Notes: generated from the letters alone by a model not told the origin. 64,000 nt of DNA from Candidatus Altiarchaeales archaeon (GCA_014727915.1 WJMO01000006.1:65376-129375); one strand, 5' to 3'. Shown: positions 48,458-64,000, counted from the stretch's first letter. Numbers and translations: made by a program.

Positions 48458-48473
48458 GCTCCCATAGTGTAGG
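48458..48473 (+). repeat. duplicate of tRNA-Glu 5' end (GCTCCCATAGTGTAGG, 15/16 identical to 48588..48603) followed by a GC-rich hairpin (48504..48523)
   Basis: Direct comparison of the two 16-mers; downstream sequence does not fold into a tRNA by hand. Confidence 0.5.
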
Positions 48474-48587: not shown

Positions 48588-48760
48588 GCTCCCGTAGTGT
48601 AGGCCGGCCTATCATTCCGGACTTTCGAGAGCCCCTTTCTTTTACAAAAAGAAAGGTGCTTCACCCCCAAAGAAAACGAAAACCCAGGAAGGGGGTGAGT
48701 GTCCCAGTTAAGGACATCCGAAGAAATCCGGCGACTCGGGTTCGAATCCCGACGGGAGCA
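48588..48760 (+). tRNA. tRNA-Glu (anticodon UUC) with ~98-nt intron at canonical 37/38 position (intron ~48628..48725); CCA not encoded
   Basis: Hand-folded: acceptor GCTCCCG/CGGGAGC, 3-bp D-stem typical of tRNA-Glu (GTGTAGGCCGGCCTATCAT), anticodon stem CCGGA/TCCGG, loop CTTTCGA, T-arm TCGGG-TTCGAAT-CCCGA, discriminator A. Confidence 0.7.
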
Positions 48761-48779
48761 TCGAAACGGATGTTCGGTT

Positions 48780-49991
48780 TTAGGGGCAAACTAACGCCTC
48801 TTTAACCAATGTTCGGTTTTCTGACTTCTTAAATTTGTTTTCGAGCCAGTTTCTAAACTCCTGATTCTTGTACAGTTCTATGAAGAATTTCCTGGCCTCC
48901 TGTTCCTCTTTCTCGATTGCTCCGAGGGCTTCATCGACTAGTGGTGTTGCGCATCGGTTGCAATACCAGCTGTCTGGTGTGTTAGTTTTGTTGCATTTGC
49001 CGCATTTCCGGGGTTCTCTCGTCTCCATTGGTTCTGGTGGTTTGATTCCGTTCATCCCCAGTATTACATCATCAACATCTCGGCCGCTCAGGTGGACGTA
49101 GGTTGCGGCCATGTCTGAGCCCATTATCCATCCAAAGAACGCGCATAGTTGGCTTTCAGTCATTATTTTCGCGAGTTCTGTTGCTCGGCTGTGTCGGAAG
49201 TTGTGCGGGTGGCATTTGGCAGATGGAATGGCTGCGGCTTTTGCGTTTCTTTTTATCATCAATCGTATTGCATCATATCTCATGGGATTCTTGTATTGGA
49301 AGTCTAGCCAAAGGGGTGCGTCCATGTCGTCGCCGTGGGGGTGGTTCCTAATCCAGACCCTGAGGTATTGTTCTGGCTCCAAAACCAATATGCTCCTGGC
49401 TCCCGTCTTCCCCTTATGGACGTGTATCCTTGCCCCATTCTCCTCAAACACTATGTCCTTTACTCGGAGGGATCCGAGTTCACCAACTCTCAAACCTCCA
49501 TAATAAAGTAGGGATATTATGGCTCTGTCTCGGTCGAATTTACACGCCCTGATAATGGCGTCTACTTCCCCTATTGCTATCAGCTGTTCTGGAAGCTTCC
49601 GGTCCCTCCTCTTGACAGAGCATTTTATGAATTCTACCTTTTCGGGAGCTTTCCCGCCGTTCATTACCTTATAGAATTTCTTTATCCCTACTTTCAGGTC
49701 CTTCTTTGTGTGTGCAGCGGAGTCACAGAAATTTATGGTAGTCACCAGCTCCCGGAGGTCTTTCTCAGTCGCGTCCAAAAAGTCAAAATTGTAGTCTGAT
49801 AACTTCATGATTTTGCCATATATGGCATAGTATTTGCGGATGCGCATTTCCCCAATATTCTCTGAAGCTATCAGGTTGACGAACTCGTTTATGGCGTCTT
49901 TGTTTTTCTGGGTGATTCTTGGGTCTTGGTTGAACTTGTTCTTTTCGTAGCCTATGCCGTATTTGCCCCGGTAGATAGAGTTAGCGTCCAT
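48780..49991 (-). CDS. int: tyrosine recombinase / integrase (XerC/D-phage integrase family) with C-terminal zinc ribbon
   Basis: HNFRHSRAT (HxxR) and ATYVHLSG (catalytic Tyr) motifs; CGKCNKT...CNRC ribbon; gene abuts tRNA 3' end. Confidence 0.85.
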   Translation of the reverse strand: MDANSIYRGKYGIGYEKNKFNQDPRITQKNKDAINEFVNLIASENIGEMRIRKYYAIYGKIMKLSDYNFDFLDATEKDLRELVTTINFCDSAAHTKKDLKVGIKKFYKVMNGGKAPEKVEFIKCSVKRRDRKLPEQLIAIGEVDAIIRACKFDRDRAIISLLYYGGLRVGELGSLRVKDIVFEENGARIHVHKGKTGARSILVLEPEQYLRVWIRNHPHGDDMDAPLWLDFQYKNPMRYDAIRLMIKRNAKAAAIPSAKCHPHNFRHSRATELAKIMTESQLCAFFGWIMGSDMAATYVHLSGRDVDDVILGMNGIKPPEPMETREPRKCGKCNKTNTPDSWYCNRCATPLVDEALGAIEKEEQEARKFFIELYKNQEFRNWLENKFKKSENRTLVKEALVCP

Positions 49992-50333
49992 CCTCCCTCA
50001 AAAGCCGGCAGGCTTCCTCCCAGGACAATCCAAAGCCCTGAATAAGCCTCCGGAACAGTGTTATATGCTCTGGCAGGGTCTTCTCCAGTAAAATCTCATA
50101 CTGCTCTTCCACACATACATATAGGACGAGATTCGACTTGTCCTTACTGCAAAAACCTATAGATTCCACGTACACACGTGAGACACACACCTATAAAAAC
50201 TAGTAGGACTCTGCAGTAGAAGACCAATAGCTTAACTTCTTCTAATAGGTTGGCAGATGCGTTTCAAATATAGATAGGTGCAAGTATTCTGCTGGATTTG
50301 TCCTTTTTTATGGTTACTATCAATGTTTTTCAT

Positions 50334-51977
50334 ATGCAAATATCTTATGCTCATTGGATATCTGTGATATTTCTCTTATGCGCTTTTTCAGGTTGTGTTT
50401 CTGAAGATGTCAAAGATAATACTAACCTGTCGGAGGAGGTAGGTACTGGGAGTTCACCCTTGGATGAATACCTAGCCACCTATGACCGTTTGTTCGTCCA
50501 TGGGAGGGAGATAAATGCATCGTTTAACCGTTTGGATCTTCTTCAGACTCAGCGGGTTAATCTGTTCACTGACTTAGAGAACCTTGCTGGCAGCCCAAGG
50601 GTAATGCACAGTGAGGCTGAGATGGAGGAATTTCAGTCCCAAGTAGACGATATTCTCCAAAATATCAGCGACGTATTGAGTGCCGAGCGGGAGACATTGG
50701 ACCTGCTTGAGATGCAGGCTAGCCAACGGGAGGAGTATATACGCAATCTGAGCGCCAAGTCAGCAGGTCTTGATTCGGAGCGCATGCAATACGCCGATAA
50801 GATTGGCGAATACTTCCAGAAATCGAATGTCCGCCTGATGGAGTTTGTATCCCATTACCAGAACCATGTGCGTCTGACTAATGAAAGCCTGCAGAGGATT
50901 ATACGCCGGGAAGGCAGCAGCGGCTACCCTGAAGAGCGTGTAAACACGGCAATTCTCATAAGAAAGAGTCATAGGCAGATGAATGAGTTGATAATACTCG
51001 GCAAAGACGAATACGCCAAATTGCTCCAGACAGCTGACACCCCCATAAACAAGTCCATAGTGAAGGTCTATATCTGCCCAGATGAGAGGGAAGTAGGCGA
51101 TATCGAAGAATGCGGGCTGACGGAAAACGACCTGACCTACATTAACCTCGCCAAGAAACTGCTGGAATGCGACGAAATACCCGAAGGCGAAGAGAACACC
51201 AAATGCTACTACGACGCCATAGTGCCGTTCTACAACATCTCCCTGTGCGAAATAATCGGAGATACCGAATGGAGAAATGGGAACATATGGAAGGGATACT
51301 GCTACGCCGACATAGCCAAACACTACAACAACGAGTCAATCTGCGCCAAAGGCAAGGACTGGGTTCGAGTTGAGTACTGCTATGAGATGGTAGCCCGGAA
51401 AAAACAAGACATAACAGTCTGCGAAAACATCAAAGAGGACCGTCGTAGCATGTGCTATATGTACATAGGCTTGGACAAACGAGACAAGGACATCTGCAAT
51501 ATGATACCTAGAGACGACATAAGAGAAAGCTGCCTTGACAAAATCGGAGGAAACAAACCGGATGCTGGAGCAACTGATGATTCCAAATCTGACAGCCAGG
51601 TCCTTGGCCTAGAGCCCCAGCACATACTAGGCGTTAATATGCCCCCTGAAGAAGGTCTTAGAGTACTTGAGATTATAGCCGTGCCGAGGAAAAACAGTGA
51701 ACCCCTGCATCTACCCCCAGTAACAATACAGGTGACAGCCAGCGATGAAGACATATACTTGAATCACAGCTTCCAGTCAATAAAGCAGGGCACAGCCTAC
51801 AGGGAAGGCTACCTGTCACAAGGAGACATCATAATGATAACCATAAACCTCAAAGAAGCCGTCAAAGAAAACCAGAAACTCAAAATCAAGATAATCCCAG
51901 AAACAGGCACAACCACAATTGCAGAACCCGCCACACCCCAACAGATAATCACCCAAAGAACCAACATCTGGCCATAA
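50334..51977 (+). CDS. secreted lipoprotein: coiled-coil N-half, Cys-rich C-half
   Basis: Lipobox LLCAFSGC (start placed at internal Met 50334); heptad-like region; 20+ Cys in C-terminal half. Confidence 0.45.
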   Translation: MQISYAHWISVIFLLCAFSGCVSEDVKDNTNLSEEVGTGSSPLDEYLATYDRLFVHGREINASFNRLDLLQTQRVNLFTDLENLAGSPRVMHSEAEMEEFQSQVDDILQNISDVLSAERETLDLLEMQASQREEYIRNLSAKSAGLDSERMQYADKIGEYFQKSNVRLMEFVSHYQNHVRLTNESLQRIIRREGSSGYPEERVNTAILIRKSHRQMNELIILGKDEYAKLLQTADTPINKSIVKVYICPDEREVGDIEECGLTENDLTYINLAKKLLECDEIPEGEENTKCYYDAIVPFYNISLCEIIGDTEWRNGNIWKGYCYADIAKHYNNESICAKGKDWVRVEYCYEMVARKKQDITVCENIKEDRRSMCYMYIGLDKRDKDICNMIPRDDIRESCLDKIGGNKPDAGATDDSKSDSQVLGLEPQHILGVNMPPEEGLRVLEIIAVPRKNSEPLHLPPVTIQVTASDEDIYLNHSFQSIKQGTAYREGYLSQGDIIMITINLKEAVKENQKLKIKIIPETGTTTIAEPATPQQIITQRTNIWP

Positions 51978-52522
51978 GAGAGATTTGATTAAGCGGGTCT
52001 TGTGAAGCTCTGTTTTGGAATCAGGGCTTGTTTCACTGCCTGTTTTTGTGTCAGGGCCTAACCGCTGTTGTTTGTACAGCCATGTACAGCGGAAATGCTC
52101 AGAAGGGCAAACAAAGCTCAACAGTCAATTTTCAAAATCTGCATATATTCACCCCTAAGCATAGGTGATTCTACTGCTTGGATGTCTACATCAGAATATC
52201 TACTTCAAAAAATAGGAGGGGATAATCTGGGCAGAAAACAAGGGATGAATCATTGCCTGAAGTAAATTCAGGGGTTTGTTCACTGCCAGTATTGGTTTCT
52301 GGTTGTATTGGGAGCTGTTGGAGCTACAGTGAGCTACATGAGCTATAGTAATTGGAAAACATAGCCTGATTAAAGGAGTTTGTTTGGAGCAAATCATCCC
52401 CCCTATTTCCAGCAGGCGAGCAATTAATCCACTATACGAAAGACAGACGGGTTAGGGTTATTCATAGCACTTTAGCTGCTAAAACATGTTTAAACATAAT
52501 TTAGGATATTTAAACCGCTTAT

Positions 52523-54406
52523 ATGAATATTATCCAAGGTGGTGGAATGATGGTCCGGTCTGATTCTAAGGTTATAGGCTACCTTTCCCTGCTTCTCATC
52601 TTCTCCTTAGGCTCCATATTGGTTGAATCAACTTCCCCAGCCTCCTCCACCCTCGACGACAACACAATCCTGATCACATCAACCACGCTTTTACCAACTA
52701 CTACGACGTTGGAGGAAACCACCACCTCCACAGTTAAAGACTCAACCTCAACCACCACACTCCCTACACTATCCTCCGGGGATAAGTTATCTGAAGACTA
52801 TAAGAAAGATAATCACGCATATAATGTGGTATTGAAGTCTGAACCACGCGATTACACTATCGAATTCATAGTCCACGATGTTCCAGTCAAGATTAGTCAC
52901 CATAATTTGAATGGGGGTGGTGTTGAGGTGAGTCCTAGTTTTGACATGCGCTACATCAGCGACGACACCATCGAATACAGGAACATGTACGGAGATGGAA
53001 TCAACACCCAATATGAGTTAACGAGTAATCTGATAAAGGAGAACATCATCTTGGAAGATGACGAATATATCGAATCCACCGGCCTTTCTTCGTCAACCAT
53101 GAGCATTGAGTTTTCAATCATTAACCCGGAATTTATTGTGCCCAGCTTAGACGGCAAAACCGAATGGAAAGGAGACGTGAAAACAACAGGGGAGGATATC
53201 TTCTTCATCAGAAAGAAGGAACCCCACAGACTATATGCAGTAAACAGATTCTACAGGGTTAAAGCACCCTACCTTGAGGATGCGGATGATCGGAGAGTTG
53301 ATTTGACGTACACAATGAAGAATGTGGAGGGGAAATTGTTGTTAACCCTGGATATTCCCCCAATATTAGGTGAATTAGAGTACCCGGTTGTCGTTGACCC
53401 CTCTGTCTATCTTGACACCAGCCACGACGGCTTTGAGTGGATTAACGAAGACGACTGCAACACATACGACAGCTGGTGTGACAACTACGAATCCGAAAAC
53501 AACATGCAATTCAGGATACCAAACGACTGCTCCACCGACGGACAGGTCAGTAAGCCAACGTTCAGGTTCGACACAAACGGATTAGACGATGAACACTACG
53601 GTGATGTAGTAGCTGCAGACCTGCATATTGAAGGAACATGCGGCGGACAGAGTAGCCTAGACCCAGATGAATGGGTTTTATTATATGAAGTAACCGAGTT
53701 CGAAGGCACACCCGCATGTGAAGGAGAGAACGCACCCGATAAAGTAGGGGTGTCGATTGCGACATTAATGTCCGACTACTACTGCGCTGGAACTAAAGAA
53801 AAGGATATAACAGACGAATTCACCACCGCAGTGGAAAACGAACAAAACATCTCCTTCCAAATAGACCTTGACCCAAGCCGAAACTCAACATACGAACCCA
53901 CATACGACATAAAATACGACATATCAGATTCAAACCTTTACATAGAATATTGGTTCGACTGCGAAGTCTATGATGACTGCGCAGACCCAAGTGAATTCTG
54001 CTGGGACGACTCCGGCGGACTATGCCAAGACGACCTACAATACGGAGAATCATGCGAAGACATCGCCACAGACAACGACAACTACGCCTGCCAAAACAAC
54101 AACTGCGAACTAGATGACTTTGATGGCCTGGGAGCATACTGCACAGAAGACAACAAATGCACCCACGACGGAACACAATACACCACAGGCCAAATACACT
54201 GCAACCAAACAACCGGAAACAGCTACTGGAAAAACTGCACAGGAACCAACTGGAGCACCCAAACAAACTGCACCTACGGCTGCACCGAAAACACAGGCTG
54301 CGCCACCACAACCACAACAACAACCACCAGCACAACAACAACCACAACACTAGAAGGAGATATCAGCGTATCAAAAAATCAAATCACAATCACGGTGATA
54401 AAATGA
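52523..54406 (+). CDS. secreted protein with Thr-rich linkers and C-terminal Cys-rich domain
   Basis: N-terminal TM/signal; TTLLPTTTTLEETTTST and TTTTTTTSTTTTTT runs. Confidence 0.5.
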   Translation: MNIIQGGGMMVRSDSKVIGYLSLLLIFSLGSILVESTSPASSTLDDNTILITSTTLLPTTTTLEETTTSTVKDSTSTTTLPTLSSGDKLSEDYKKDNHAYNVVLKSEPRDYTIEFIVHDVPVKISHHNLNGGGVEVSPSFDMRYISDDTIEYRNMYGDGINTQYELTSNLIKENIILEDDEYIESTGLSSSTMSIEFSIINPEFIVPSLDGKTEWKGDVKTTGEDIFFIRKKEPHRLYAVNRFYRVKAPYLEDADDRRVDLTYTMKNVEGKLLLTLDIPPILGELEYPVVVDPSVYLDTSHDGFEWINEDDCNTYDSWCDNYESENNMQFRIPNDCSTDGQVSKPTFRFDTNGLDDEHYGDVVAADLHIEGTCGGQSSLDPDEWVLLYEVTEFEGTPACEGENAPDKVGVSIATLMSDYYCAGTKEKDITDEFTTAVENEQNISFQIDLDPSRNSTYEPTYDIKYDISDSNLYIEYWFDCEVYDDCADPSEFCWDDSGGLCQDDLQYGESCEDIATDNDNYACQNNNCELDDFDGLGAYCTEDNKCTHDGTQYTTGQIHCNQTTGNSYWKNCTGTNWSTQTNCTYGCTENTGCATTTTTTTTSTTTTTTLEGDISVSKNQITITVIK

Positions 54407-55203
54407 GGATCCAAACCATATTCATACTAGCTGCATTAGTCATCAGCGGGTGCATTACGCCAGAAAAACAGACAACAACGACCACAATTTTGACTACAAG
54501 CACCATTGGTTATCGCTCAACTACATCTACACTAACCAAATCAACAACCACTACTGTAACCACAACGTTATTCACTACCCCAACAACCCTCATGACTAGT
54601 TGGGGGACGATAAGTGGGCGGGTGATAGAGACTACATATATCCGCGATAATTTTTGTCAATTCTCCGATGTATCTTTATGTGTCAACAACTCCAATGATG
54701 TTAGCACTTCAGTCTCAAACGTATCCAATGTCAGAGTTGTTTTATTCCATAATTTGTCGTATATGAATGAAACACAAACTAACCATTTTGGAGAGTTTTC
54801 TTTCTACGCTAAAACGGACAATTATGGCATACTATTCTACAAAAATGGTCATGCATACATTTACAACCAGGATATCAATAGGGATTGGGAACATAAACAG
54901 ATTGTGGAAAATATCGTCCCCCAGGGGAATAGCCAAGAACCGATAATTTTTGACATAGGACGCGAAAAGCCAGACTTTACAGAAGGAGTAATATATGTCG
55001 CCTTAAAGAACAATTCCCTCATGCCCGAAGAGATTAATAAGACCGCATTGAAGTATGGGTGTGAGTATGTGTCTAAAAATCGGCTAGGATTTGTCCGACT
55101 AAAAACACCCTCGGATCAAACAGAATTAGAGATTCAAAAAAAACTCTCTAATGACCCGAATTTTCAGCAGCCATTCCTAGATTCGCTCACATCAACCATA
55201 TGA
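54403..55203 (+). CDS. lipoprotein with Thr-rich stalk and I9-propeptide-like C-terminal segment
   Basis: Start ATG 54403 overlaps previous stop (ATGA); lipobox VISGC; the ORF-track 54157 start adds a spurious His/Asn-rich extension. Confidence 0.45.
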   Translation: MRIQTIFILAALVISGCITPEKQTTTTTILTTSTIGYRSTTSTLTKSTTTTVTTTLFTTPTTLMTSWGTISGRVIETTYIRDNFCQFSDVSLCVNNSNDVSTSVSNVSNVRVVLFHNLSYMNETQTNHFGEFSFYAKTDNYGILFYKNGHAYIYNQDINRDWEHKQIVENIVPQGNSQEPIIFDIGREKPDFTEGVIYVALKNNSLMPEEINKTALKYGCEYVSKNRLGFVRLKTPSDQTELEIQKKLSNDPNFQQPFLDSLTSTI

Positions 55204-55207
55204 TAAC

Positions 55208-55498
55208 ATGAAATTATTAACCACCATATACGTCTTAGCTATACTCAGCAGCTTAGCAATCCAGACCAGCGCGTCTAACGATTCGATTAGGTCAGCATGG
55301 GTTGATTCAGTATTATACAAACAACTAACAGAACAAAATGAAACCTTAGTCCTTGTGGTATTAAAAAATGATATCGGCCTAAAATTCCAGGGTAGCCTAC
55401 AGAACAAAAAGACAATCTATTTCACTAACCGCATAAATTATTTCAAAGATGAAGATGCTGTTCTCCAAACACTCCAGAAAGACGAATTCCTACCCTGA
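55208..55498 (+). CDS. small secreted protein, peptidase-inhibitor I9 (subtilisin propeptide)-like
   Basis: Signal peptide; VDSVLYKQLTEQNETLVLVVLKND similar in pattern to N-terminal propeptide of the subtilase downstream. Confidence 0.4.
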   Translation: MKLLTTIYVLAILSSLAIQTSASNDSIRSAWVDSVLYKQLTEQNETLVLVVLKNDIGLKFQGSLQNKKTIYFTNRINYFKDEDAVLQTLQKDEFLP

Positions 55499-55682
55499 CA
55501 ATAAACAGGCCCCAACGCATGTTCCCTTTACATGCAACAACATGACCCACTAGCCTTCAAGCCAAACAAAGCCCAAACCCAGGAGTAAACTCTAAGAATA
55601 TATCTATGTCCACTATGGATTCAGGCCTGTAAATAGCCGCCTTGAGGATAGAAATGGAATAAATTAACCATAATGCTTAAAC

Positions 55683-56279
55683 ATGGCTTTTAAAGGCCTT
55701 TTTTTAATGGGTTTATCTGGTGGTTGGATGATGTATCATAAGGCTTATGTTTTAGCGTTTTGCGTTATCTTATGTGGTTGTTTACAGTCAGAAGACAGTT
55801 CTACTACGTTAACCTCTACGAGCAGTACACTACCTCAATCCACTACTACTAACCCGTCCACAACTCTTAAATTACCTCCCTCAACCACTACAACAACATT
55901 ACATTCTAGAGAAAATGGTTCCATCATTTATCCCAACCAGGAGATTAGAGAGGACATAAATAAGATAATTATTATGTTTAATGATGAAGTTTTAGACAAT
56001 ATCACTGCTAAAGTCAAATATAATGCAAGTCATCCAAACGAAAAATTTGATAAATATTTCATATATGATTTGCAATTAGAAACTGAAAAAGAATACGGTG
56101 TTAAAAATCTAACAAGGAGATACTATTCACTAATCAATGGTGGCTCCGTCACCATTTCATACGATGAGAATCTATCCGATGCAGATAAGAAAATAGCAGG
56201 CGATAAACTCCTCAATAACCTAGATAATAGATGGTATACTAAAAACGCTGGATACAATGTGATAGGTACTTACACATGA
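55683..56279 (+). CDS. lipoprotein with Thr/Ser-rich stalk and I9-like C-terminal segment
   Basis: Lipobox ILCGC; RRYYSLINGGSVTISYDENLSD resembles TRYSLINGFSGYVTKEGLKKLE of the subtilase propeptide. Confidence 0.4.
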   Translation: MAFKGLFLMGLSGGWMMYHKAYVLAFCVILCGCLQSEDSSTTLTSTSSTLPQSTTTNPSTTLKLPPSTTTTTLHSRENGSIIYPNQEIREDINKIIIMFNDEVLDNITAKVKYNASHPNEKFDKYFIYDLQLETEKEYGVKNLTRRYYSLINGGSVTISYDENLSDADKKIAGDKLLNNLDNRWYTKNAGYNVIGTYT

Positions 56280-58087
56280 AAATAAAAAGTATATTCTTAG
56301 TGTTGGTAACTACAGGTCTACTTATTTCACATGTTCATGCAGTCAATAACGATAAAACAAGAGTTATAGACAAAACAGTATATGAAAAAGTAGAAAAAGA
56401 TGGTGAAGCTTTTGTAATCATTATCTTGAATAGGATTAACAAAACTAAAACTCGTTGGAAAACAGAAACTCAACGGATTAACATACTGTCTGACAAGAAG
56501 AACAAGATTTTTCAGAGTCAGGAAAAACTTTTGTCTTCATTATCTGTAAATGAATTCAGGATAAAGACAAGGTATAGTCTTATAAATGGTTTTTCAGGTT
56601 ATGTCACAAAAGAGGGGTTAAAAAAATTAGAGAACAATGAAGATATTGTTAGCGTCTATCTTAATAGAAGAGGAGAATACAATCTTGCAGAGAGCATACC
56701 TATAATCAGAGCAAATGATACATGGAGCACGAATGTGGGTAGTAACAATATTACTGGCTTGAATATTGGTGTATGCGTTATTGATTCTGGGGTTAATTAT
56801 AGTCACGCAGACCTGGGAGGCTGTAGCGACGCTCAATATCTTAATGGTGAGTGTAGTAAAGTTATAGCAGGTTTTGATACGTTTGAAGATATACCTATTC
56901 CAAGAGATACTGTTGGACATGGCACTATGATAGCAGGAATTGTTGGAGCAAACGGTAATCTAAAAGGAGTTGCCCCAAATGTAGGCATAGTAGCCTTAAA
57001 AATTGGCGATGCCTGGGATGAAGACGCTGCCAACGAGGCATTAGAATGGTGCACAAGTAACAAATCAAAATATAACATAACAGTGCTAACCTTAAATATA
57101 AAGTATAACAGTACAGAAGAGGATAATTGCTATCCGGATTCTGGATTATGCCTTGAGATTAAAGAAGCATATGAGAACGGCATCTTTGTTGCTATGTCCT
57201 CTGGAAATGACGGTTATACAGATAAAATAGATTTCCCAGCATGTTGTGAAGGGGGCTTTTCGGTTGGAGCAACAACAGACGATGACCAAATAACTGGATT
57301 CACAAGTAGAAGCCAATATCTTGACTTATTGGCTCCAGGAAATACAATAAATTCTACAAGATGGTCTTCTGGTTTTTCCCCAACACCATGTATGGGTAGT
57401 TGCACATGCAATGAGGATTATATGGAATGCTGGGGAACATCATTTGCAGCACCACATGTTGCTGGAGTTGCAGCATTAATCACTCAAATCGATAATACAA
57501 TACTGCCTGATGATATAGGCTATATCCTAAAGGAAACTGGCGTCCCTATTTTTGACAATTCTACAAATTATACATTCCCTCGTGTTGATGCTTATAATGC
57601 TGCCTCAATGGCTTTAAGGAGTGATTTCTTTGATGTCTCAAACACAGGAGGTGCTAATTTGTCAGTCTATGCGATAAACAGTACTGACTCATGGATAAGC
57701 TCATTATATCCCCAATCATTTATTCTTGAACCCGGAGCAAATCAAACAGTAATGGTAACAGTAGATTTGCCAGATGACATGAATATCGGGAGTTATTCAA
57801 CAACTGTTGACATATACAGTAATGACCCCGATGAATCTTCTGTATCTGTCAGCATAAAATATCAGAAAATACACTACGGTTGCACAGGCATATGCCCCCC
57901 ACAAACAGGTGATTGGATAATCAACAACTACACAGCAATATGGTACAATGATACAGTGATAGATGGTGATATCAACATAAACTCAACCACATTGTTCCTT
58001 GGAGAACAAGAAACCAATCTAAGTGAAAAGAACCTTATCTTAAATGGTGAACTAAAATTGGACAATGGTGTTATAAGATTTGACTAA
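56276..58087 (+). CDS. subtilisin-like serine protease (peptidase S8) with N-terminal I9 propeptide
   Basis: Catalytic Asp (VIDSGVNYSHADLGG), His (HGTMIAGIVGA), Ser (GTSFAAPHVAGVAALI). Confidence 0.85.
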   Translation: MKIKSIFLVLVTTGLLISHVHAVNNDKTRVIDKTVYEKVEKDGEAFVIIILNRINKTKTRWKTETQRINILSDKKNKIFQSQEKLLSSLSVNEFRIKTRYSLINGFSGYVTKEGLKKLENNEDIVSVYLNRRGEYNLAESIPIIRANDTWSTNVGSNNITGLNIGVCVIDSGVNYSHADLGGCSDAQYLNGECSKVIAGFDTFEDIPIPRDTVGHGTMIAGIVGANGNLKGVAPNVGIVALKIGDAWDEDAANEALEWCTSNKSKYNITVLTLNIKYNSTEEDNCYPDSGLCLEIKEAYENGIFVAMSSGNDGYTDKIDFPACCEGGFSVGATTDDDQITGFTSRSQYLDLLAPGNTINSTRWSSGFSPTPCMGSCTCNEDYMECWGTSFAAPHVAGVAALITQIDNTILPDDIGYILKETGVPIFDNSTNYTFPRVDAYNAASMALRSDFFDVSNTGGANLSVYAINSTDSWISSLYPQSFILEPGANQTVMVTVDLPDDMNIGSYSTTVDIYSNDPDESSVSVSIKYQKIHYGCTGICPPQTGDWIINNYTAIWYNDTVIDGDININSTTLFLGEQETNLSEKNLILNGELKLDNGVIRFD

Positions 58088-58393
58088 AAAGCCCGATTAA
58101 TGCCCCAATATGGAAAAGAAGTCCGAGTATAATACATGCAAAACATTCCCCCTCACTATGAATCCCTTTAATGTGGGGCAATCACAGTGCATCATCGGCC
58201 TAGCCTGTTTGTTTTTGTAAGCCGTCTGTTTATTCTGGTGCAGCCTATTCAATTGATAGGCATATGGCTCTTTGGGGTGCTAGTGTTTTGGCGTAGATGG
58301 ACAAGTTAGGGGTTGTTGGCTCTTGTTGTTGGTCTTCTGTTGGTGGTTTCGACGGGAGCAAGAGGGGTCTTACGACCCCTTCTAATCCCCACA

Positions 58394-58425
58394 GTCGGGT
58401 TCGTGCCTGGATCCCGGCGGGAGCA
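58394..58425 (+). repeat. diverged copy of tRNA-Glu 3' segment (attR-like); a second 11-nt partial copy CGACGGGAGCA at 58350..58360
   Basis: Manual alignment to 48733..48760. Confidence 0.5.
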
Positions 58426-58446
58426 CAACTTCCCTTTCTATTTCTG

Positions 58447-59232
58447 TTATCCCATGAATTTTTTCATCATCATGATGATTGCTAGGGCTATGAATGTTAT
58501 GCCTATGGTTTTTGATAGTTTTTCGTCTGTGGTTTTGTTGGCGAATTTTGAGGCGGTGGCGGCTCCGATAATGCTTGCTGTTCCTGTGATTAGGATTTCC
58601 GGTAGGGGTGTTCCGGTGTGTATGAAGTGTCCGATGGCGCCGCTTAAGGCGATGAATGTCATTATGAGTACTGAGGTTCCTATGGCTGTTTTTACTTCGT
58701 ATCCTAGGATGAAGGTTAGGATGATGAGGATCATTATTCCCCCGCCCGCGCCGATGAAGCCGCAGATTACTCCGATGAGCAGTCCGAAAAATATTGATGA
58801 GAGTGTTTTGTTTCTCTTGAACACGTGAAGGTCGTGGTGTTCTCTGAATTCTTTTAGTCTTTCGTTTATCGGTTTTCGTATGAAGTTAACTCCCATGATT
58901 AGGATTGCGATTCCTGCGCCTCTGCCGAGGAGGGAATCTGGCATGTGGCTTGATAATATGCTTCCGAGGAAGGCACCGAATACCGCCATCACTGTTAATA
59001 TAATCCCGTTTTTCAGGTCAATGTGCTTGTACCGATAGTAATTAAGAGCAGATGTGCTTGACGCGAACACGTCTGTCGCAAGGCTTATCCCGATCGCCGT
59101 GAATGCTGGATAGTCCAGGAATGCGACGAGCATCGGCGTTACGATAACCGCCGCGGATGCTCCCACAAGGCCTGTCACGATCCCTGCGAAAAACCCAGCT
59201 ATTATGAGGAATACCGCCGATATCACGTCCAT
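58447..59232 (-). CDS. TauE/SafE (DUF81) family anion exporter/permease
   Basis: 261 aa, ~8 TM, GxGGG motifs (GLVGASAAV, GFIGAGGGIMI). Confidence 0.7.
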   Translation of the reverse strand: MDVISAVFLIIAGFFAGIVTGLVGASAAVIVTPMLVAFLDYPAFTAIGISLATDVFASSTSALNYYRYKHIDLKNGIILTVMAVFGAFLGSILSSHMPDSLLGRGAGIAILIMGVNFIRKPINERLKEFREHHDLHVFKRNKTLSSIFFGLLIGVICGFIGAGGGIMILIILTFILGYEVKTAIGTSVLIMTFIALSGAIGHFIHTGTPLPEILITGTASIIGAATASKFANKTTDEKLSKTIGITFIALAIIMMMKKFMG

Positions 59233-59272
59233 TGTTTTGTGTGAGTTTTTGATTTTTAGTGGATGGCAAGCA

Positions 59273-59581
59273 TCATTCCTTCTGTTTTTTTGTCGTTTTC
59301 CGGATGATTATGGCGGTGGCGCAGAGTAGTACGAAGGTGTTGGCTGTTATTATGATGATGTCTGACTGTAGTATGCCGTGTATTATCCAGCAGAGTGAGG
59401 CGAAGAAGGCTAGGACGTAGGTTTTCGTGGATATTGCGGAGAGGTCCTTCTCCGTGTACGCCCGGGCTACCTGGGGTATGAACTGGACCGACGTCAGCAC
59501 TACCGCCGCCCAGCCGATGTGCTCCAAAACCATGGTAATAGAATGGGCGAGAGATAAAATAACACCCCCAGCCAAATGCAC
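59273..59581 (-). CDS. SemiSWEET-like 3-TM PQ-loop transporter
   Basis: 102 aa, 3 TM, PQ motif (QFIPQVARAY). Confidence 0.55.
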   Translation of the reverse strand: MHLAGGVILSLAHSITMVLEHIGWAAVVLTSVQFIPQVARAYTEKDLSAISTKTYVLAFFASLCWIIHGILQSDIIIITANTFVLLCATAIIIRKTTKKQKE

Positions 59582-59801
59582 GCCAGCGGTTTCCAGGCCT
59601 TAAACCGGCGTTTTAACCGGTTTCCCTGGGTTTTTTATACTGGTTTGGGCATTATTGTATTTATCAGATTGTTTTGGCTTGGGTGTTATGGCACCCGGGT
59701 TGGAGGACAGAGGGGATTTAACCTGTTATAGGGTCGTGGATGCGGCTTTTAGTTTCTGCAGGGGGCATTTGAAGCCCCGACTTATAAGTTGAATATTTGA
59801 C

Positions 59802-60296
59802 ATGGAATCTGCATATGCTATGCCTGGGTTGGAGAACATGCGCCTGTGCATGGCGGAAGACCTAGAGCAGATACGGGAGGTTATGGTTGAGTCGGGGGTG
59901 TTCTCAGAGTTTGAGGTCTTGAACCTCATGGACATGATAGGAGAGTACGTTGGTGACGTAAGCGGGGACCTTATGACATACTGCTACGTTATCGAGGGAC
60001 ATGTTGGAGGATTCATCTCATTCGGCACGGGCTTGGGTGTGGGAACCTATGAAGTGTATTGGATATGCGTTAGCCCAAAGCACTCCGGGAACGGTATTGG
60101 GACTGCGTTGGTCAGGTTCGCCGAAGAATACATCAGGGGGAGGAGGGGAAGGGCGATATTCATCGAGACCTCGTCTTCTCGGGGATACGAGGGGGCTAGG
60201 AGGCTGTATGAGAAGATGGGGTACGATTTGGCTGCTCGGGTGGAGGACTACTACAACGAGGGAGACCATAAGCTGGTATATTTGAAAAAGCTCTGA
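59802..60296 (+). CDS. GNAT family N-acetyltransferase
   Basis: Acetyl-CoA binding motif YWICVSPKHSGNGIGTALV. Confidence 0.7.
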   Translation: MESAYAMPGLENMRLCMAEDLEQIREVMVESGVFSEFEVLNLMDMIGEYVGDVSGDLMTYCYVIEGHVGGFISFGTGLGVGTYEVYWICVSPKHSGNGIGTALVRFAEEYIRGRRGRAIFIETSSSRGYEGARRLYEKMGYDLAARVEDYYNEGDHKLVYLKKL

Positions 60297-60314
60297 ATGG
60301 GGGGGCGAGGGGTT

Positions 60315-61874
60315 TCACTTGGTTCTCTCCCCTATAACCCTGAGTTTTTCCTGTATCATCCGGGTGTCGTCCGGGTCTGCCATGTCGTATGCTGGCTGGT
60401 AGCTCTGAGTCAGGGATGCTGCGCGGGCTGACATCTCAGGTGTATACCGGCCTGGGTTGTCTGATATGTGCTGGGCTGCGAGGTCGGCGCGTATGAATGC
60501 TGGGAGGTGCTGGTTAGGCTGCACCAGTCGCTCCCACCATAGGTCTCGCTCTCCCTCGGCTGCCGTGAGGAACATGGCCGCGTCCCGTGGGGATCCTAGC
60601 AGCCGCAGGTCCGCTTCGAACGCCCGGGCCTCATCTGGTAGGGTCGGGTAGCCGGACAGGTCCGAGAAGTCCATGGAGTCTGCAATGGGCGTCCCAACAT
60701 CCTGGGAGCTCCGGTGGACAGCCCATTGCCCGGGTTCGAAAGATCCTGTTTTGGAGGTCTGCGTAGTGGTTGTTTTGGGAGTGTGAACGGGGGCCTTGGG
60801 GTCTTTTTTCTCTAGTTCTGCGAGTTTGTCGGCTGCTATCCTCCCCCTTGGGTTCAGGTCCATTGCGAGCTCATATGCTCTCCTGGCGTTGACTTCATCA
60901 TGTAAGGCGTCGTAGAGGAGTCCCATGGTCGTGTATGACATGGAGGCAGCGTAGTGGAAGCTACGGACAGCATCCCTGAAATCCCGGTCAGAGAGGGCTT
61001 TACGAGCCTCTTGCAGCTTCTGAGGTATTCCGAGGACTGAGACCGCGGCTTGGGCGTATGGAAGCCCGGACTCCAGGGCAGGGGCTATCTCCCCCCTGGG
61101 CGGGTTTGCAAAGGGAACCCTGTGGTAGGCTAGGCTCGCCATGTTGTTCAACACCCAGTTGGCGTTCATCATGTCCCGGTGGTTGCCCGCAACAGCGTCG
61201 AAGTCGAGCTCCAAGGGGTTGGAAGTGCCTCCCTGCCCGGCTTTATGGGGTAGTGTAATAAGCCAGCTGTTACCTGCCTTTGAGGCTGCGTCGATTATGC
61301 GAACGCATTCCCTGTCCGGGTCTGAAACGGACCCCTGCAGGTCCTCCCTCTTCAAAGCGGCTGCCATGCTAGTGAAATACCTGACTGCAACGAAGTTCCG
61401 GGGGTCCAGGAGTGTTGAACGTTCCAGCAGGTCCAATGCGGTCGCCTTGTCTCCGGACTTCTCGTCCACGTATATGCCTAGAACTCCTGTGGCGGTGGAC
61501 AGGTACTCCCTGTGGTGGGCTGGCACAGAAGCGGCAAGCTCCTCAGGAGGGTGTCGCTGGACTGCAGCGATGACCTCGCTCCTCTGCGTGCTCTTAGGCA
61601 TGCCATAGTATGCTCTAAGCACTGTCAGGCAGTTCTTGCGGGCGTAATCGTATCTTTGCTCGGCTTCGGCCATCTCCCGCTCGGCGGCATCATCTTCACC
61701 CCGGTTCCTGCAGCCGTGGGCCCTTCTCCGGCCTTCAGTGTAGGCCTTGTAGTCGTAGCGGATGAACCTGCTGTGCTTGTCCATCTCCGCGGTACGCTCG
61801 TCCATGCTCTCGGGAGCGGGCATCCCATGGGAGTGGACCACCTTCTTACCCATAAGAATGATTTGGAAGCGCAT
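60315..61874 (-). CDS. hypothetical protein with TPR-like helical repeats
   Basis: 519 aa ORF. Confidence 0.45.
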   Translation of the reverse strand: MRFQIILMGKKVVHSHGMPAPESMDERTAEMDKHSRFIRYDYKAYTEGRRRAHGCRNRGEDDAAEREMAEAEQRYDYARKNCLTVLRAYYGMPKSTQRSEVIAAVQRHPPEELAASVPAHHREYLSTATGVLGIYVDEKSGDKATALDLLERSTLLDPRNFVAVRYFTSMAAALKREDLQGSVSDPDRECVRIIDAASKAGNSWLITLPHKAGQGGTSNPLELDFDAVAGNHRDMMNANWVLNNMASLAYHRVPFANPPRGEIAPALESGLPYAQAAVSVLGIPQKLQEARKALSDRDFRDAVRSFHYAASMSYTTMGLLYDALHDEVNARRAYELAMDLNPRGRIAADKLAELEKKDPKAPVHTPKTTTTQTSKTGSFEPGQWAVHRSSQDVGTPIADSMDFSDLSGYPTLPDEARAFEADLRLLGSPRDAAMFLTAAEGERDLWWERLVQPNQHLPAFIRADLAAQHISDNPGRYTPEMSARAASLTQSYQPAYDMADPDDTRMIQEKLRVIGERTK

Positions 61875-61896
61875 GCTTTTATCCGATGACTCTCAT

Positions 61897-62943
61897 ATGT
61901 TATCAGTGTCTCCTGAGAGAGTCGGGCCTGGTGGAAGCAGGTTCTTTCACGGGGTCCATACCGACCGGAAGGGGCGGTTCAAGCGCCTCGACGTCCTAGG
62001 CTTATCCTCCCATCTCAGCTCCAACATCGACGGGCACGTTCACACCAGCGCATCCGACGGCATCAGAACGCCGAGGGAACTCGCCTACGAGGTTTACAAA
62101 AGGAACTTACGGGTTGCTGTCACGGACCATAACACCCTCTCCGGAGCATTGGAGTCCATTAAGGCGCTGGAAGAGTATAGCAGGGTCTTTGGCTTTTCAT
62201 CGGATTCTGAGATAATAGCAGGCATCGAGTTCACGGTGAAGCTTGGGAAGAACATGTTCAACGGCATGAAGAGGATGCATATTCTAGGGGTGGGGATAGA
62301 CCCTTACAACATGCACATATGGGATTGGATGATTGAACAGGACAACACGCGAGAGAATAACATCAGACACGCGTATGATGTGGTGGGAAGCCTCAGGAGG
62401 CAGGGCATAAGGTTCGATGACATGTTCGAAGAGCGTGTAAACGTTTACAATAACGTCTACAAGGCCGTCGCAAGGTCCATGGTATACAATGACCCCAAAC
62501 CGTTTAAGAGGTTTCTGGGCTTCTGGGTGAACGAGAAAAGAGGAGGTTGCTGGAGAAAGGAGGTGAGGTCCGGAGGTTTCGAGAAGAGGATGATCAACAG
62601 GCTTACCGCCATATACGGGGAGTTATCCTCGAGGAAGCCCAGCCTGGAATCTGCAGTGGACATGATAAAGAAGGCAGGAGGGCTGGTCGTCGCGCCCCAT
62701 ATAATGACAACCAGACCGTCATTGAAGCAGTGCTCGGTGAGGGAGCTGGCGGGTTTCTTCGGAAAGCTGGGATCGTACGGAATAGATGCGGTGGAGGCAT
62801 ACCATCCCGCTCACTGCCTGAAAACAGCGGACAGGATAGCCGAATCCGCGTTGAAGTCGGGTTTATCGGTGACTGCGGGATCGGACGCCCACCGACGGGA
62901 GGACCTGCTCGGATTCTTCACGAGGAACTGGAGCATATGCTGA
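61897..62943 (+). CDS. PHP-domain metal-dependent phosphoesterase
   Basis: DGHVHTSASDG (HxH...SDG) PHP signature; start placed at ATG 61897 to avoid overlap with upstream convergent/divergent gene. Confidence 0.6.
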   Translation: MLSVSPERVGPGGSRFFHGVHTDRKGRFKRLDVLGLSSHLSSNIDGHVHTSASDGIRTPRELAYEVYKRNLRVAVTDHNTLSGALESIKALEEYSRVFGFSSDSEIIAGIEFTVKLGKNMFNGMKRMHILGVGIDPYNMHIWDWMIEQDNTRENNIRHAYDVVGSLRRQGIRFDDMFEERVNVYNNVYKAVARSMVYNDPKPFKRFLGFWVNEKRGGCWRKEVRSGGFEKRMINRLTAIYGELSSRKPSLESAVDMIKKAGGLVVAPHIMTTRPSLKQCSVRELAGFFGKLGSYGIDAVEAYHPAHCLKTADRIAESALKSGLSVTAGSDAHRREDLLGFFTRNWSIC

Positions 62944-62946
62944 ATC

Positions 62947-63429
62947 ATGGAAGCCTGCAGCAGCTGCTATGGAATGTGCTGTGAGACGTTCAACGTGCCG
63001 GTGACGGACTCTGACCTGAGGCGGCTAATGGAGTGTGGCGTAGACGTCAGTGATTGTGTGGGCTTCATCAGCATATGTGAGATGAGCTCATCATACCCTG
63101 ATGTCCGATTGGATGATGGATACTACCATATGGTGTTGGAGAGGTTGGGGGGAGCCTGCGTCCTGGCCATTAGAGCAGGTGGGGGTTTAAGGTGTGGAGT
63201 CCACGGCCATCACCACCTCGCCTGCCAGCTATACCCCATAAACGCAGTCACTGGAAAGCCGAAAAAAGGCCACATATGCCATTTTAAGGGGTTTGATGGG
63301 GTTGATCATGCGGGTTTGGGCGAGCGGAATGTTAGAGAGGTTAGGGGGTATGGGAGGAAGGTGCGGGCGTGGAATCAGACGAGAGGAGAACATACTGTTG
63401 AAGGCTTTCTCAAGCACCTGCTCGAGTAG
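62947..63429 (+). CDS. YkgJ-family putative Zn/Fe-chelating protein
   Basis: CSSCYGMCC motif near N-terminus. Confidence 0.5.
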   Translation: MEACSSCYGMCCETFNVPVTDSDLRRLMECGVDVSDCVGFISICEMSSSYPDVRLDDGYYHMVLERLGGACVLAIRAGGGLRCGVHGHHHLACQLYPINAVTGKPKKGHICHFKGFDGVDHAGLGERNVREVRGYGRKVRAWNQTRGEHTVEGFLKHLLE

Positions 63430-63488
63430 ACCGTTCCCCTGGCCACATGCTTGGGTAGATTTATACGTGTCTTACCTCATCTTCTGCT

Positions 63489-64000
63489 ATGAAGGTGGGA
63501 GTGCTCTTCTCAGGCGGGAAGGACTCGGCATACGCGCTGTACAAGGCCTTGGATAAGGAGGATGTCGTCTGCCTTATCACGATAGTGTCGGAGAACCCTG
63601 AGAGCTACATGTTCCACACCCCCAACATAGCCCTAACTGAACTCCAGGCTGAAGCCATGGGGATGCCATTGGTGAAGGTGGCAACCGATGGCGTCAAGGA
63701 GGAGGAGTTGGAGGACTTGAAGAAAGCCATCGAGACCGCGAAGGTGAAATATGGAATCGAGGGTGTTGTGACGGGCGCCGTGGAATCCGTATACCAGGGG
63801 GAGAGGGTGCAGCGGGTCTGCGACGAGCTCGGTCTCTGGTGCTTCAACCCCCTGTGGAAGATGGACCAGATACAGTTGCTCGAGGACATCCTGGAATTCG
63901 GTTTTGAAGTGATTGTCTCGGGTGTTTTCGCGGAGCCGTTCACCAGGGAGTGGCTTGGAAGGCGGGTAGGCCCGGAGGCCATCGACGAGCTGGAAAAAAT
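63489..64000 (+). CDS. PP-loop ATPase, diphthine-ammonia ligase (MJ0570/DPH6)-like; runs off right edge
   Basis: Own translation MKVGVLFSGGKDSAYALYKA... (SGGKDS PP-loop); not in ORF track because open at window end. Confidence 0.6.
   Translation, partial: MKVGVLFSGGKDSAYALYKALDKEDVVCLITIVSENPESYMFHTPNIALTELQAEAMGMPLVKVATDGVKEEELEDLKKAIETAKVKYGIEGVVTGAVESVYQGERVQRVCDELGLWCFNPLWKMDQIQLLEDILEFGFEVIVSGVFAEPFTREWLGRRVGPEAIDELEK

Follow-up and report, generated by a model that had tools for sequence, protein, structure and literature searches.

Downstream of a tRNA-Glu(UUC) gene, within a 64,000-nt stretch of DNA from a Candidatus Altiarchaeales archaeon (WJMO01000006.1, 65376-129375; hereafter the window), lie a tyrosine integrase gene that points back toward the tRNA, a small open reading frame (ORF) coupled to it, six ORFs for predicted secreted proteins and lipoproteins, and two sequences resembling the 3' part of the same tRNA gene. 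We interpret the segment from 48761 to ~58349/58425 as an integrase-only genomic island, that is, an archaeal cryptic integrated element (CIE), at the 3' end of tRNA-Glu(UUC), with a probability of about 85%. The features that define its two ends, including the candidate left and right attachment sites (attL and attR), are given below by position in the window. Related genomes and contigs are designated by L-numbers.

48588-48760, + strand: tRNA-Glu(UUC), with exon 1 at 48588-48627, intron at 48628-48725 and exon 2 at 48726-48760 (ARAGORN with introns)
48741-48760, + strand: candidate attL core, the last 20 nt of tRNA-Glu (TTCGAATCCCGACGGGAGCA)
48761-48820, + strand: element-side arm next to the tRNA, overlapping the last integrase codons
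48780-49991, - strand: tyrosine integrase, 403 aa (Pfam PF00589 Phage_integrase, 7.6e-19; PHROG integrase)
49981-50112, - strand: coupled small ORF of 43 codons with a GTG start (same-position conservation; codon-position test)
58350-58360, + strand: attR-a, an exact 11/11 copy of the tRNA-Glu 3' end (CGACGGGAGCA)
58384-58425, + strand: attR-b, a diverged copy of the whole tRNA-Glu 3' exon, 42 nt (gapped alignment)

The tRNA-Glu target and its integrase

The tRNA-Glu gene was called at 48588-48760 (+ strand) by ARAGORN with introns allowed and folds into a normal cloverleaf. Its intron is 98 nt long and sits at the canonical 37/38 position. Because of this intron, neither default ARAGORN nor Rfam at gathering thresholds reported an RNA gene in the 64-kb window, a limitation of the tools, as the gene is present. 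EF-1alpha and S10 lie directly upstream. By EF-1alpha, the nearest relatives among the species-representative genomes scanned are Altiarchaeota metagenome-assembled genomes at 91%, 86%, 86%, 83% and lower identity, and the host is an uncultivated Altiarchaeota (non-Altiarchaeum) archaeon. The order EF2-EF1a-S10-tRNA-Glu(UUC) is kept in 14 Altiarchaeota relatives, all of those whose contigs extend that far. The tRNA gene stays intact beside the integrase. It is the integration target, and its present 3' end forms attL.

The integrase stop codon lies 20 nt from the tRNA 3' end, in agreement with an earlier note on this DNA, made from the sequence alone, that the gene (48780-49991, - strand) reads toward that end. 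All catalytic residues (R168, K195, H263, R266, W288, Y298) are present and invariant in an alignment with 11 relatives, relative to which the protein is full length and collinear, encoded by a single intact ORF. A C-terminal CxxC…CxxC zinc ribbon is nearly invariant across the aligned homologues. The enzyme is a non-suicidal (intact) type II integrase. An SSV-type suicidal integrase was considered and rejected, as the gene is unsplit, the 403-aa ORF is intact, and PF00589 was detected with no Phage_integr_3 (PF16795). A XerA housekeeping resolvase was likewise rejected: the protein scored 93.3 bits against NCBIfam NF040815, for which the cutoff is 220, and the gene is missing at the locus in 11 relatives. 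The best matches in NCBIfam and among solved structures (PDB) are XerA-like recombinases. The closest annotated viral integrases are those of the pleolipoviruses GacPV1 (1e-59) and ThalV2 (1e-52), with 35% identity over 85-88% of the query.

The stop codon of the small ORF overlaps the integrase start, and its product is helix-rich (…LPEHITLFRRLIQGFGLSWEEACRLLREDGR). The same ORF occupies the same position in six relatives (L007, L087, L088, L089, L092, L094), and substitutions among the relatives compared are fewest at codon position 2. It is a candidate regulator or recombination directionality factor.

Between the tRNA and the body of the integrase gene, the arm holds two direct copies of GTTCGGTTTT (48772-48781 and 48811-48820) on either side of a hairpin (48782-48801). 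The first 31 nt after tRNA-Glu are identical at 30 of 31 positions in the window and in L007, and the hairpin recurs at the same position in L015, L088 and L094, where it is kept by compensatory changes. The arm is a putative integrase-binding site or terminator. In L088 (2400-2681) it is joined directly to the 11-nt core of the tRNA-Glu 3' end, in a G65 variant; no tRNA body was found within 160 nt upstream of this core, and the adjoining sequence is AT-rich and unlike tRNA. That junction may be of the attP type, as in a free form, or may reflect integration outside a tRNA gene. For attL itself, the 20-nt candidate would be the counterpart, by analogy, of the 20-nt repeats that bound the related islands described below, and the last 11 nt of tRNA-Glu (48750-48760, CGACGGGAGCA) are exactly repeated at the right end.

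Two further observations concern the tRNA gene. The intron at 37/38 is highly variable among the relatives L007-L023 and L089, being absent from 9 and otherwise 38, 82-88, 98 or 138 nt long. Genes with such introns escape default ARAGORN and Rfam altogether, and ARAGORN miscalls that of L007 as tRNA-Ser. Separately, a 15/16 copy of the tRNA-Glu 5' end, followed by a hairpin, lies at 48458-48473, 130 nt upstream of the real gene. Such copies also occur in L007 (~11707), L019, L021 and L008, species with or without the integrase. The arrangement in Altiarchaeota comprises a 12-28-nt acceptor/D-arm copy, a hairpin with compensatory changes, 50-70 nt, and then tRNA-Glu, and the copy follows the species-specific variants of its own tRNA-Glu. 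It could be a pseudo-tRNA held similar by gene conversion, or a leader element.

The right end and base composition

At the right end, the 11-nt partial copy reported earlier at 58350-58360 (attR-a) is exact, and a hairpin, GGGGTC-TTAC-GACCCC, follows it at 58364-58379. The earlier note had also described a repeat of the T-arm/acceptor segment at 58394-58425 with one mismatch and a 6-nt insertion. The insertion, in the T-loop, is present, but the alignment contains two mismatches (or one mismatch and a 7-for-1 replacement), and similarity begins at 58384, defining attR-b. Its gapped score of 31 is the top match in the window, where scores elsewhere are 24 or less. With first-order Markov sequences, a score of 31 was reached in 0 of 200 simulations of the whole window, both strands, and in 1 of 1000 simulations of the 15-kb downstream + strand.

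Both copies are in the orientation of tRNA-Glu and lie at a break in GC content, attR-b starting 34 nt beyond the start of attR-a. In the longer copy, tRNA position 65 is G, the base also found in most relatives that have no integrase. The flank beyond this copy (caacttccctttct) is rich in pyrimidines and similar to native tRNA-Glu flanks, for example the one in L012. Whichever copy is attR, the right boundary falls within 58350-58425. Our data suggest that attR-a is probably the attR of the present element and attR-b probably the relic of an earlier one, which would amount to two successive integrations at a hotspot. We read attR-b as the older scar because a decayed repeat fits poorly with the unameliorated third-codon-position GC content (GC3) of the cargo and with the intact integrase.

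Short sites of this kind have precedent. Archaeal att sites of 8-14 bp at the acceptor end are documented, as are non-suicidal integrases that stay intact (PMC8371274). SNJ2 (13-14 bp) and Msmi-Pro1 (11 bp) have comparably short att sites (PMC8371274), and the exact 11-nt core is the only perfect repeat here and is also the one seen in L088. In contrast to this island, both SNJ2 and Msmi-Pro1 are proviruses that carry virion genes; the island has, in addition to the core, a longer, diverged repeat, and integrase relatives at 53-56% identity use 20-nt repeats.

The DNA between the two ends had been described as AT-richer than its flanks, and composition confirms this. GC content is 42.5% in the island and 55.5% for positions 1-48000, with local values of 0.55-0.60 in the flanks giving way to 0.31-0.49 inside. 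GC3 shifts in parallel, from 0.68-0.83 in host genes to 0.53-0.56 in the integrase and the cargo genes c559 and c627, and to 0.29-0.41 from c267 through the S8 protease gene. The sharpest GC break is on the right side, at 58.35-58.43 kb, together with both tRNA-derived repeats. A GC step at ~54.4 kb might have marked a division of the island, but no att remnant was found inside it, and the conserved synteny of c627 and c267 speaks against a junction at this step. The idea in the earlier note that the element is old and possibly immobilised was not borne out, given the full-length integrase, its coupled ORF, the exact 11-nt core and the unameliorated GC3.

A mechanism consistent with these features would run as follows. 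The tyrosine recombinase would join the element to the tRNA-Glu 3' end by site-specific recombination. The element contributes the two-gene recombination module (43-codon ORF and integrase), which abuts tRNA-Glu. The present tRNA-Glu 3' end, or the sequence just beyond it, would come from the element, with the displaced host copy at the far end. Movement between cells would depend on a helper element, vesicles or DNA uptake, because genes for replication, virions and conjugation are all missing from the island.

Integrase relatives and the extent of the island

Integrases 72-84% identical to that of the window are found in the same position and orientation after tRNA-Glu in L007, L015 and the metagenome contig L089, and adjoin tRNA-Glu and S10-EF1a where the contig extends that far. 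An 88% identical integrase in L094 has the tRNA-Glu 3' end nearby, and an 83% identical one is encoded on a 97.8-kb Altiarchaeales contig (P0002). At the same tRNA-Glu, at least four other organisms carry the integrase alongside different cargo, whereas 11 related Altiarchaeota species have S10-tRNA-Glu without it, so that its presence is patchy. In L007, the closest relative (EF1a 91%), the integrase is 84% identical and host orthologues range from 56 to 91%. As this integrase identity is as high as that of ribosomal-type proteins, it suggests that the integrase spread more recently than the hosts diverged.

Integrase relatives at 53-56% identity lie inside 10-12-kb islands with tRNA-Arg(GCG) on one side and a 19/20 copy of its last 20 nt on the other, and these islands carry an MmeI-type restriction-modification gene. 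Other close relatives of the integrase carry a DpnII system, or an ATPase and small-protein pair between tRNA and integrase. Because cargo differs among relatives, the family marks small tRNA-associated islands with interchangeable cargo. A profile scan with the integrase returned only relatives at 30-37%, and distant relatives of the integrase lie at the ends of predicted proviral contigs. Scanning viral contigs with the integrase protein and the arm motif revealed no free form, and the metagenome scan with the integrase yielded short contigs only.

Target choice and the space beside the arm vary within this group. An integrase at 82-84% identity adjoins an Asp-like tRNA gene with an identical T-arm (CTCGGGTTCGAATCCCGA) in L087 (1775-2040), and another at 82-84% adjoins tRNA-Thr(GGU) in L092 (3517-4145). 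A 56% relative abuts tRNA-Thr(UGU) in L093 (3143-3268). Integrases as closely related as these may have switched targets. Between arm and integrase, L007 (12038-13157) encodes a 270-aa protein with ATPase-like motifs and a 107-aa protein; no family match was confirmed for the pair, which gave a weak PADLOC DrmA match only (6.7e-5). L094 (3093-3764) has a 223-aa ORF in the same interval. In both, the conserved arm stays beside the tRNA despite the extra genes.

The closest described category is the CIE, defined for Thaumarchaeota by Krupovic et al. 2019 (PMC6563490). As in CIE, the integrase is the only mobile-element signature gene, the targets are tRNA genes, including intron-containing ones, and direct repeats are short; the size of the island also falls in the CIE range of 2.6-98 kb, mostly <20 kb, and CIE likewise have variable cargo that includes restriction-modification (PMC6563490). 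This island differs in its Altiarchaeota host, in the pairing of a zinc-ribbon integrase with a 43-codon ORF, and in a cargo built on a secreted/subtilase cassette. The integrase itself resembles the type II (pNOB8-type, or XerA-XerC-pNOB8) enzymes of Badel et al. 2021 (PMC8371274) in that the gene is intact after integration, belongs to PF00589 and targets a tRNA 3' end. It differs in being ~100 aa longer than XerA, below the XerA cutoff, non-core, and not on a conjugative plasmid.

Mechanistically, this is an unsurprising, textbook tRNA-associated genomic island, and a useful first description for Altiarchaeota. Mobile elements of this phylum are almost undescribed, and the locus and its relatives document an integrase family that repeatedly occupies tRNA-Glu by EF2-EF1a-S10. 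The locus also supplies att candidates (an 11-nt core versus a 20-36-nt repeat) and a candidate directionality factor.

Several observations weigh against the island as we delimit it. The 11-mer of attR-a has one further, chance occurrence in the window, at 30969, and is only moderately significant alone; attR-b is diverged, making the longer repeat imperfect. With GC3 of 0.55 on the left and 0.30 on the right, the island is a mosaic and not a single uniform acquisition. No Pfam family was matched by the small ORF. The contigs of close relatives all end inside the element, leaving no second complete copy for comparison. On the right, the flank is not syntenic: TauE, PQ-loop, GNAT and p519 genes were not found next to tRNA-Glu in any relative, and so the empty site proposed in the earlier note, tRNA-Glu followed directly by TauE, was found in none. 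The true outer boundary could lie further right, given the GC3 of 0.55 for TauE.

This last point leads to a different delimitation, in which the island is the inner, youngest part of a 13-15-kb lineage-specific block reaching from tRNA-Glu to Dph6 (63489). The genes for TauE, PQ-loop, GNAT, p519, PHP and YkgJ (58426-~63488) would then be older insertions or rearrangements, and 58350-58425 an internal junction. Dph6 is diphthine-ammonia ligase, which modifies EF-2. In L009 (EF1a 86%), the orthologue of the Dph6 gene at window positions 63489-64000 (TIGR03679, 2.3e-66) is 59% identical and lies ~300 nt after tRNA-Glu, which suggests that Dph6 is the ancestral neighbour of the EF2-EF1a-S10-tRNA cluster. 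In L008, the gene after tRNA-Glu belongs to the PHP family and is 39% identical to the one at 61762-62943 in the window. On these grounds the lineage-specific block could reach as far as about 61.8-63.5 kb, the 9.6-kb island being its youngest part. Composition points both ways. Within 58447-60296, TauE has an island-like GC3 of 0.55 and PQ-loop and GNAT have 0.65-0.66, all below the host range of 0.68-0.83, and these three genes and p519 are near tRNA-Glu in no relative; p519 and PHP are host-like (0.68-0.69). However, 58426-63488 contains no integrase, no att-like repeat above noise and no mobile-element gene, and the sharpest GC break coincides with both tRNA-derived repeats at 58.35-58.43 kb. 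Downstream synteny is poor in all relatives, and ordinary rearrangement would explain the flank equally well. We consider the larger block possible but doubtful, and retain 58350-58425 as the right boundary of the island.

Secreted cargo and the subtilase cassette

The cargo consists of six ORFs, all on the + strand.

50298-51977, + strand: c559, predicted lipoprotein; likely start ATG 50334, MQISYAHWISVIFLLCAFSGC…
52523-54406, + strand: c627, secreted acidic protein with 20 Cys, Thr-rich linkers and a Cys-rich C-terminal module
54403-55203, + strand: c267, lipoprotein (…VISGC) with a Thr-rich stalk; its start overlaps the c627 stop (ATGA)
55208-55498, + strand: c96, signal peptide and start of a subtilase propeptide (match to the L095 S8)
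55683-56279, + strand: c198, lipoprotein (…ILCGC) with a Thr/Ser-rich stalk; its stop overlaps the S8 start (ATGA)
56276-58087, + strand: secreted S8 subtilase, 603 aa, with an I9 propeptide (PF00082 Peptidase_S8, 1e-35; PF05922 Inhibitor_I9, 2.2e-5)

By direct reading of the sequence, all six ORFs start with a signal-peptide-like or lipobox (…SGC / …CGC) N-terminus, and in three of them a lipobox-type Cys is followed by a Thr/Ser-rich stretch. These N-termini and the matched S8 and I9 domains uphold the earlier description of the cargo as secreted proteins and lipoproteins with a subtilase. Its statement that phage and plasmid replication genes are absent also stands, none having been found in Pfam, PHROG, NCBIfam and PADLOC scans. 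The same scans gave no virion, conjugation or defence match in the cargo, PHROG returning a generic protease only. A defence-island reading of the cargo was rejected on the PADLOC scan.

The individual proteins range from ORFans to recognisable enzymes. c559 combines a coiled-coil-like N-terminal part, Cys-rich repeats (residues ~280-430) and a C-terminal archaellin-like domain, for which the Pfam Arch_flagellin match (1.6e-5) is below cutoff. Over its full length it is an ORFan that matches only itself at high identity, with 745 matches to the widespread Cys-rich repeat region. c627 had 2 matches among 5.8 billion proteins, one being c627 itself, and its AlphaFold model, built on a 2-sequence alignment, has a predicted local distance difference test score (pLDDT) of 30. 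No homologue of c198 was identified. c96 matches residues 31-96 of the L095 S8 (1e-8 to 1e-11), with no further S8 remnants and no BLAST match to the window's own S8; it is either what remains of an S8 gene that was displaced or an independent propeptide-like protein. I9-like paralogy of c96, c198 and c267 with the window's S8 was considered and dropped, as BLAST gave it no support; of the three, c96 alone matches the propeptide of the L095 S8. The S8 itself has its triad (D170/H215/S389) within the motifs DSG170, HGT215 and GTS387-389, and the lowest GC3 in the island (0.29). Its full-length homologues are at best 36-37% identical, and named matches are mostly from DPANN archaea (31-40%).

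Part of this cargo recurs as a unit. In L095, from another archaeon, genes for a 706-aa protein, a 443-aa Thr-stalk lipoprotein and a 628-aa S8 abut in the same order. The 706-aa protein is 41% identical to c627 over 529 aa, the 443-aa protein 28% identical to c267 over 196 aa (2e-24), and the two S8s 36% identical. No integrase was found within 10 kb upstream in L095, the only side well covered by the contig. Elsewhere, a 75% identical integrase adjoins genes for a 671-aa protein, a 133-aa protein and a 626-aa S8 protease. c627, c267 and S8 form a secreted/lipoprotein/S8 cassette that is conserved, translationally coupled and recurs elsewhere, and the cargo is not random. The locus also points to a conserved ORFan-lipoprotein-subtilase cassette. 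The cargo probably serves proteolysis at the cell surface or outside the cell, or processes the secreted proteins encoded with it.

A comparable assortment is known from the archaeal dark matter islands of Makarova et al. 2014 (PMC4158269), which likewise hold ORFan secreted proteins with a secreted peptidase and are fast-evolving, integrase-associated and species-variable. Their peptidase, described in Thermococcus, is a zincin metallopeptidase, whereas the Altiarchaeota island pairs an S8 subtilase with lipoproteins. Such loci have been proposed to act in inter-microbial conflict or signalling (PMC4158269). An alternative reading is that the block is simply a fast-evolving secretory locus of this type that lies beside the tRNA by chance, its tRNA fragments produced by local duplication and decay and its integrase an unrelated or domesticated neighbour. 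Fragments can evidently arise in other ways, as partial 5' tRNA copies occur upstream of the gene in several species regardless of integrase; the S8 cassette exists without an integrase nearby (L095), and an S8-like gene follows tRNA-Glu without an integrase in L021. We nevertheless consider a chance neighbourhood quite improbable. Eleven relatives lack the integrase at this site while others have it together with the same arm sequence, and at 93 bits against the XerA cutoff of 220 it is not a housekeeping recombinase. The repeats are correctly oriented and fall exactly at the GC break, and related integrases are flanked by clean tRNA-end repeats.

A viral origin was weighed as well, with the island as the decayed provirus of a small, pleolipovirus-like enveloped virus and the secreted proteins and lipoproteins as its spike or fusion proteins. 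The nearest annotated viral integrases do come from pleolipoviruses, with genomes of 13-16 kb. The 9.6-kb size and secreted, glycoprotein-like cargo are superficially compatible, and distant relatives of the integrase lie at the ends of predicted proviral contigs. For the non-halophilic pleolipoviruses GacPV1 (Geoglobus acetivorans pleomorphic virus 1, BK065156) and ThalV2 (BK065158), however, the likeness is confined to the integrase, at 35% identity; no other gene is shared, and the island is without VP3/VP4-like or Rep genes. Indeed, tblastn in both directions showed no similarity to VP3-like, VP4-like, gp05, gp07 or Rep proteins, the integrase alone matching. The cargo has no PHROG match other than a generic protease and, on direct reading, no C-terminal membrane anchors. 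Moreover, L095 has the cassette but no integrase in the 10 kb upstream of it, the only side well covered by the contig, and close relatives of the integrase carry restriction-modification systems. A provirus is therefore highly improbable, and the integrase-only island remains the reading we adopt.

Taken further, the integrase, the 43-codon ORF and the ~11-nt core might constitute an Altiarchaeota-wide cargo-shuttle family that swaps defence modules and the S8 cassette at tRNAs, with the AT-rich S8 half reflecting gene flow from low-GC, DPANN-type episymbionts to the Altiarchaeota that host them. We regard this scenario as speculative and unlikely.

Some smaller observations on the cargo follow. 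Public annotation (P0243, P0121) places the first residue of c559 at 109 and that of c627 at 206, which loses both signal peptides. For c627, the longer ORF is the real one, because the alignment with the L095 homologue begins at residue 86 of c627. c559 and c627 are separated by 546 nt of non-coding DNA, which contains, at 52021-52302, three copies of a ~35-nt motif (TCAGGG..TTCACTGCC..TCAGG) that are 60-77% identical and may be regulatory repeats. Finally, L021 (3222-4919) carries an S8-like gene with segments 32-39% identical to the window S8, ~600 nt downstream of tRNA-Glu on a contig with no integrase.

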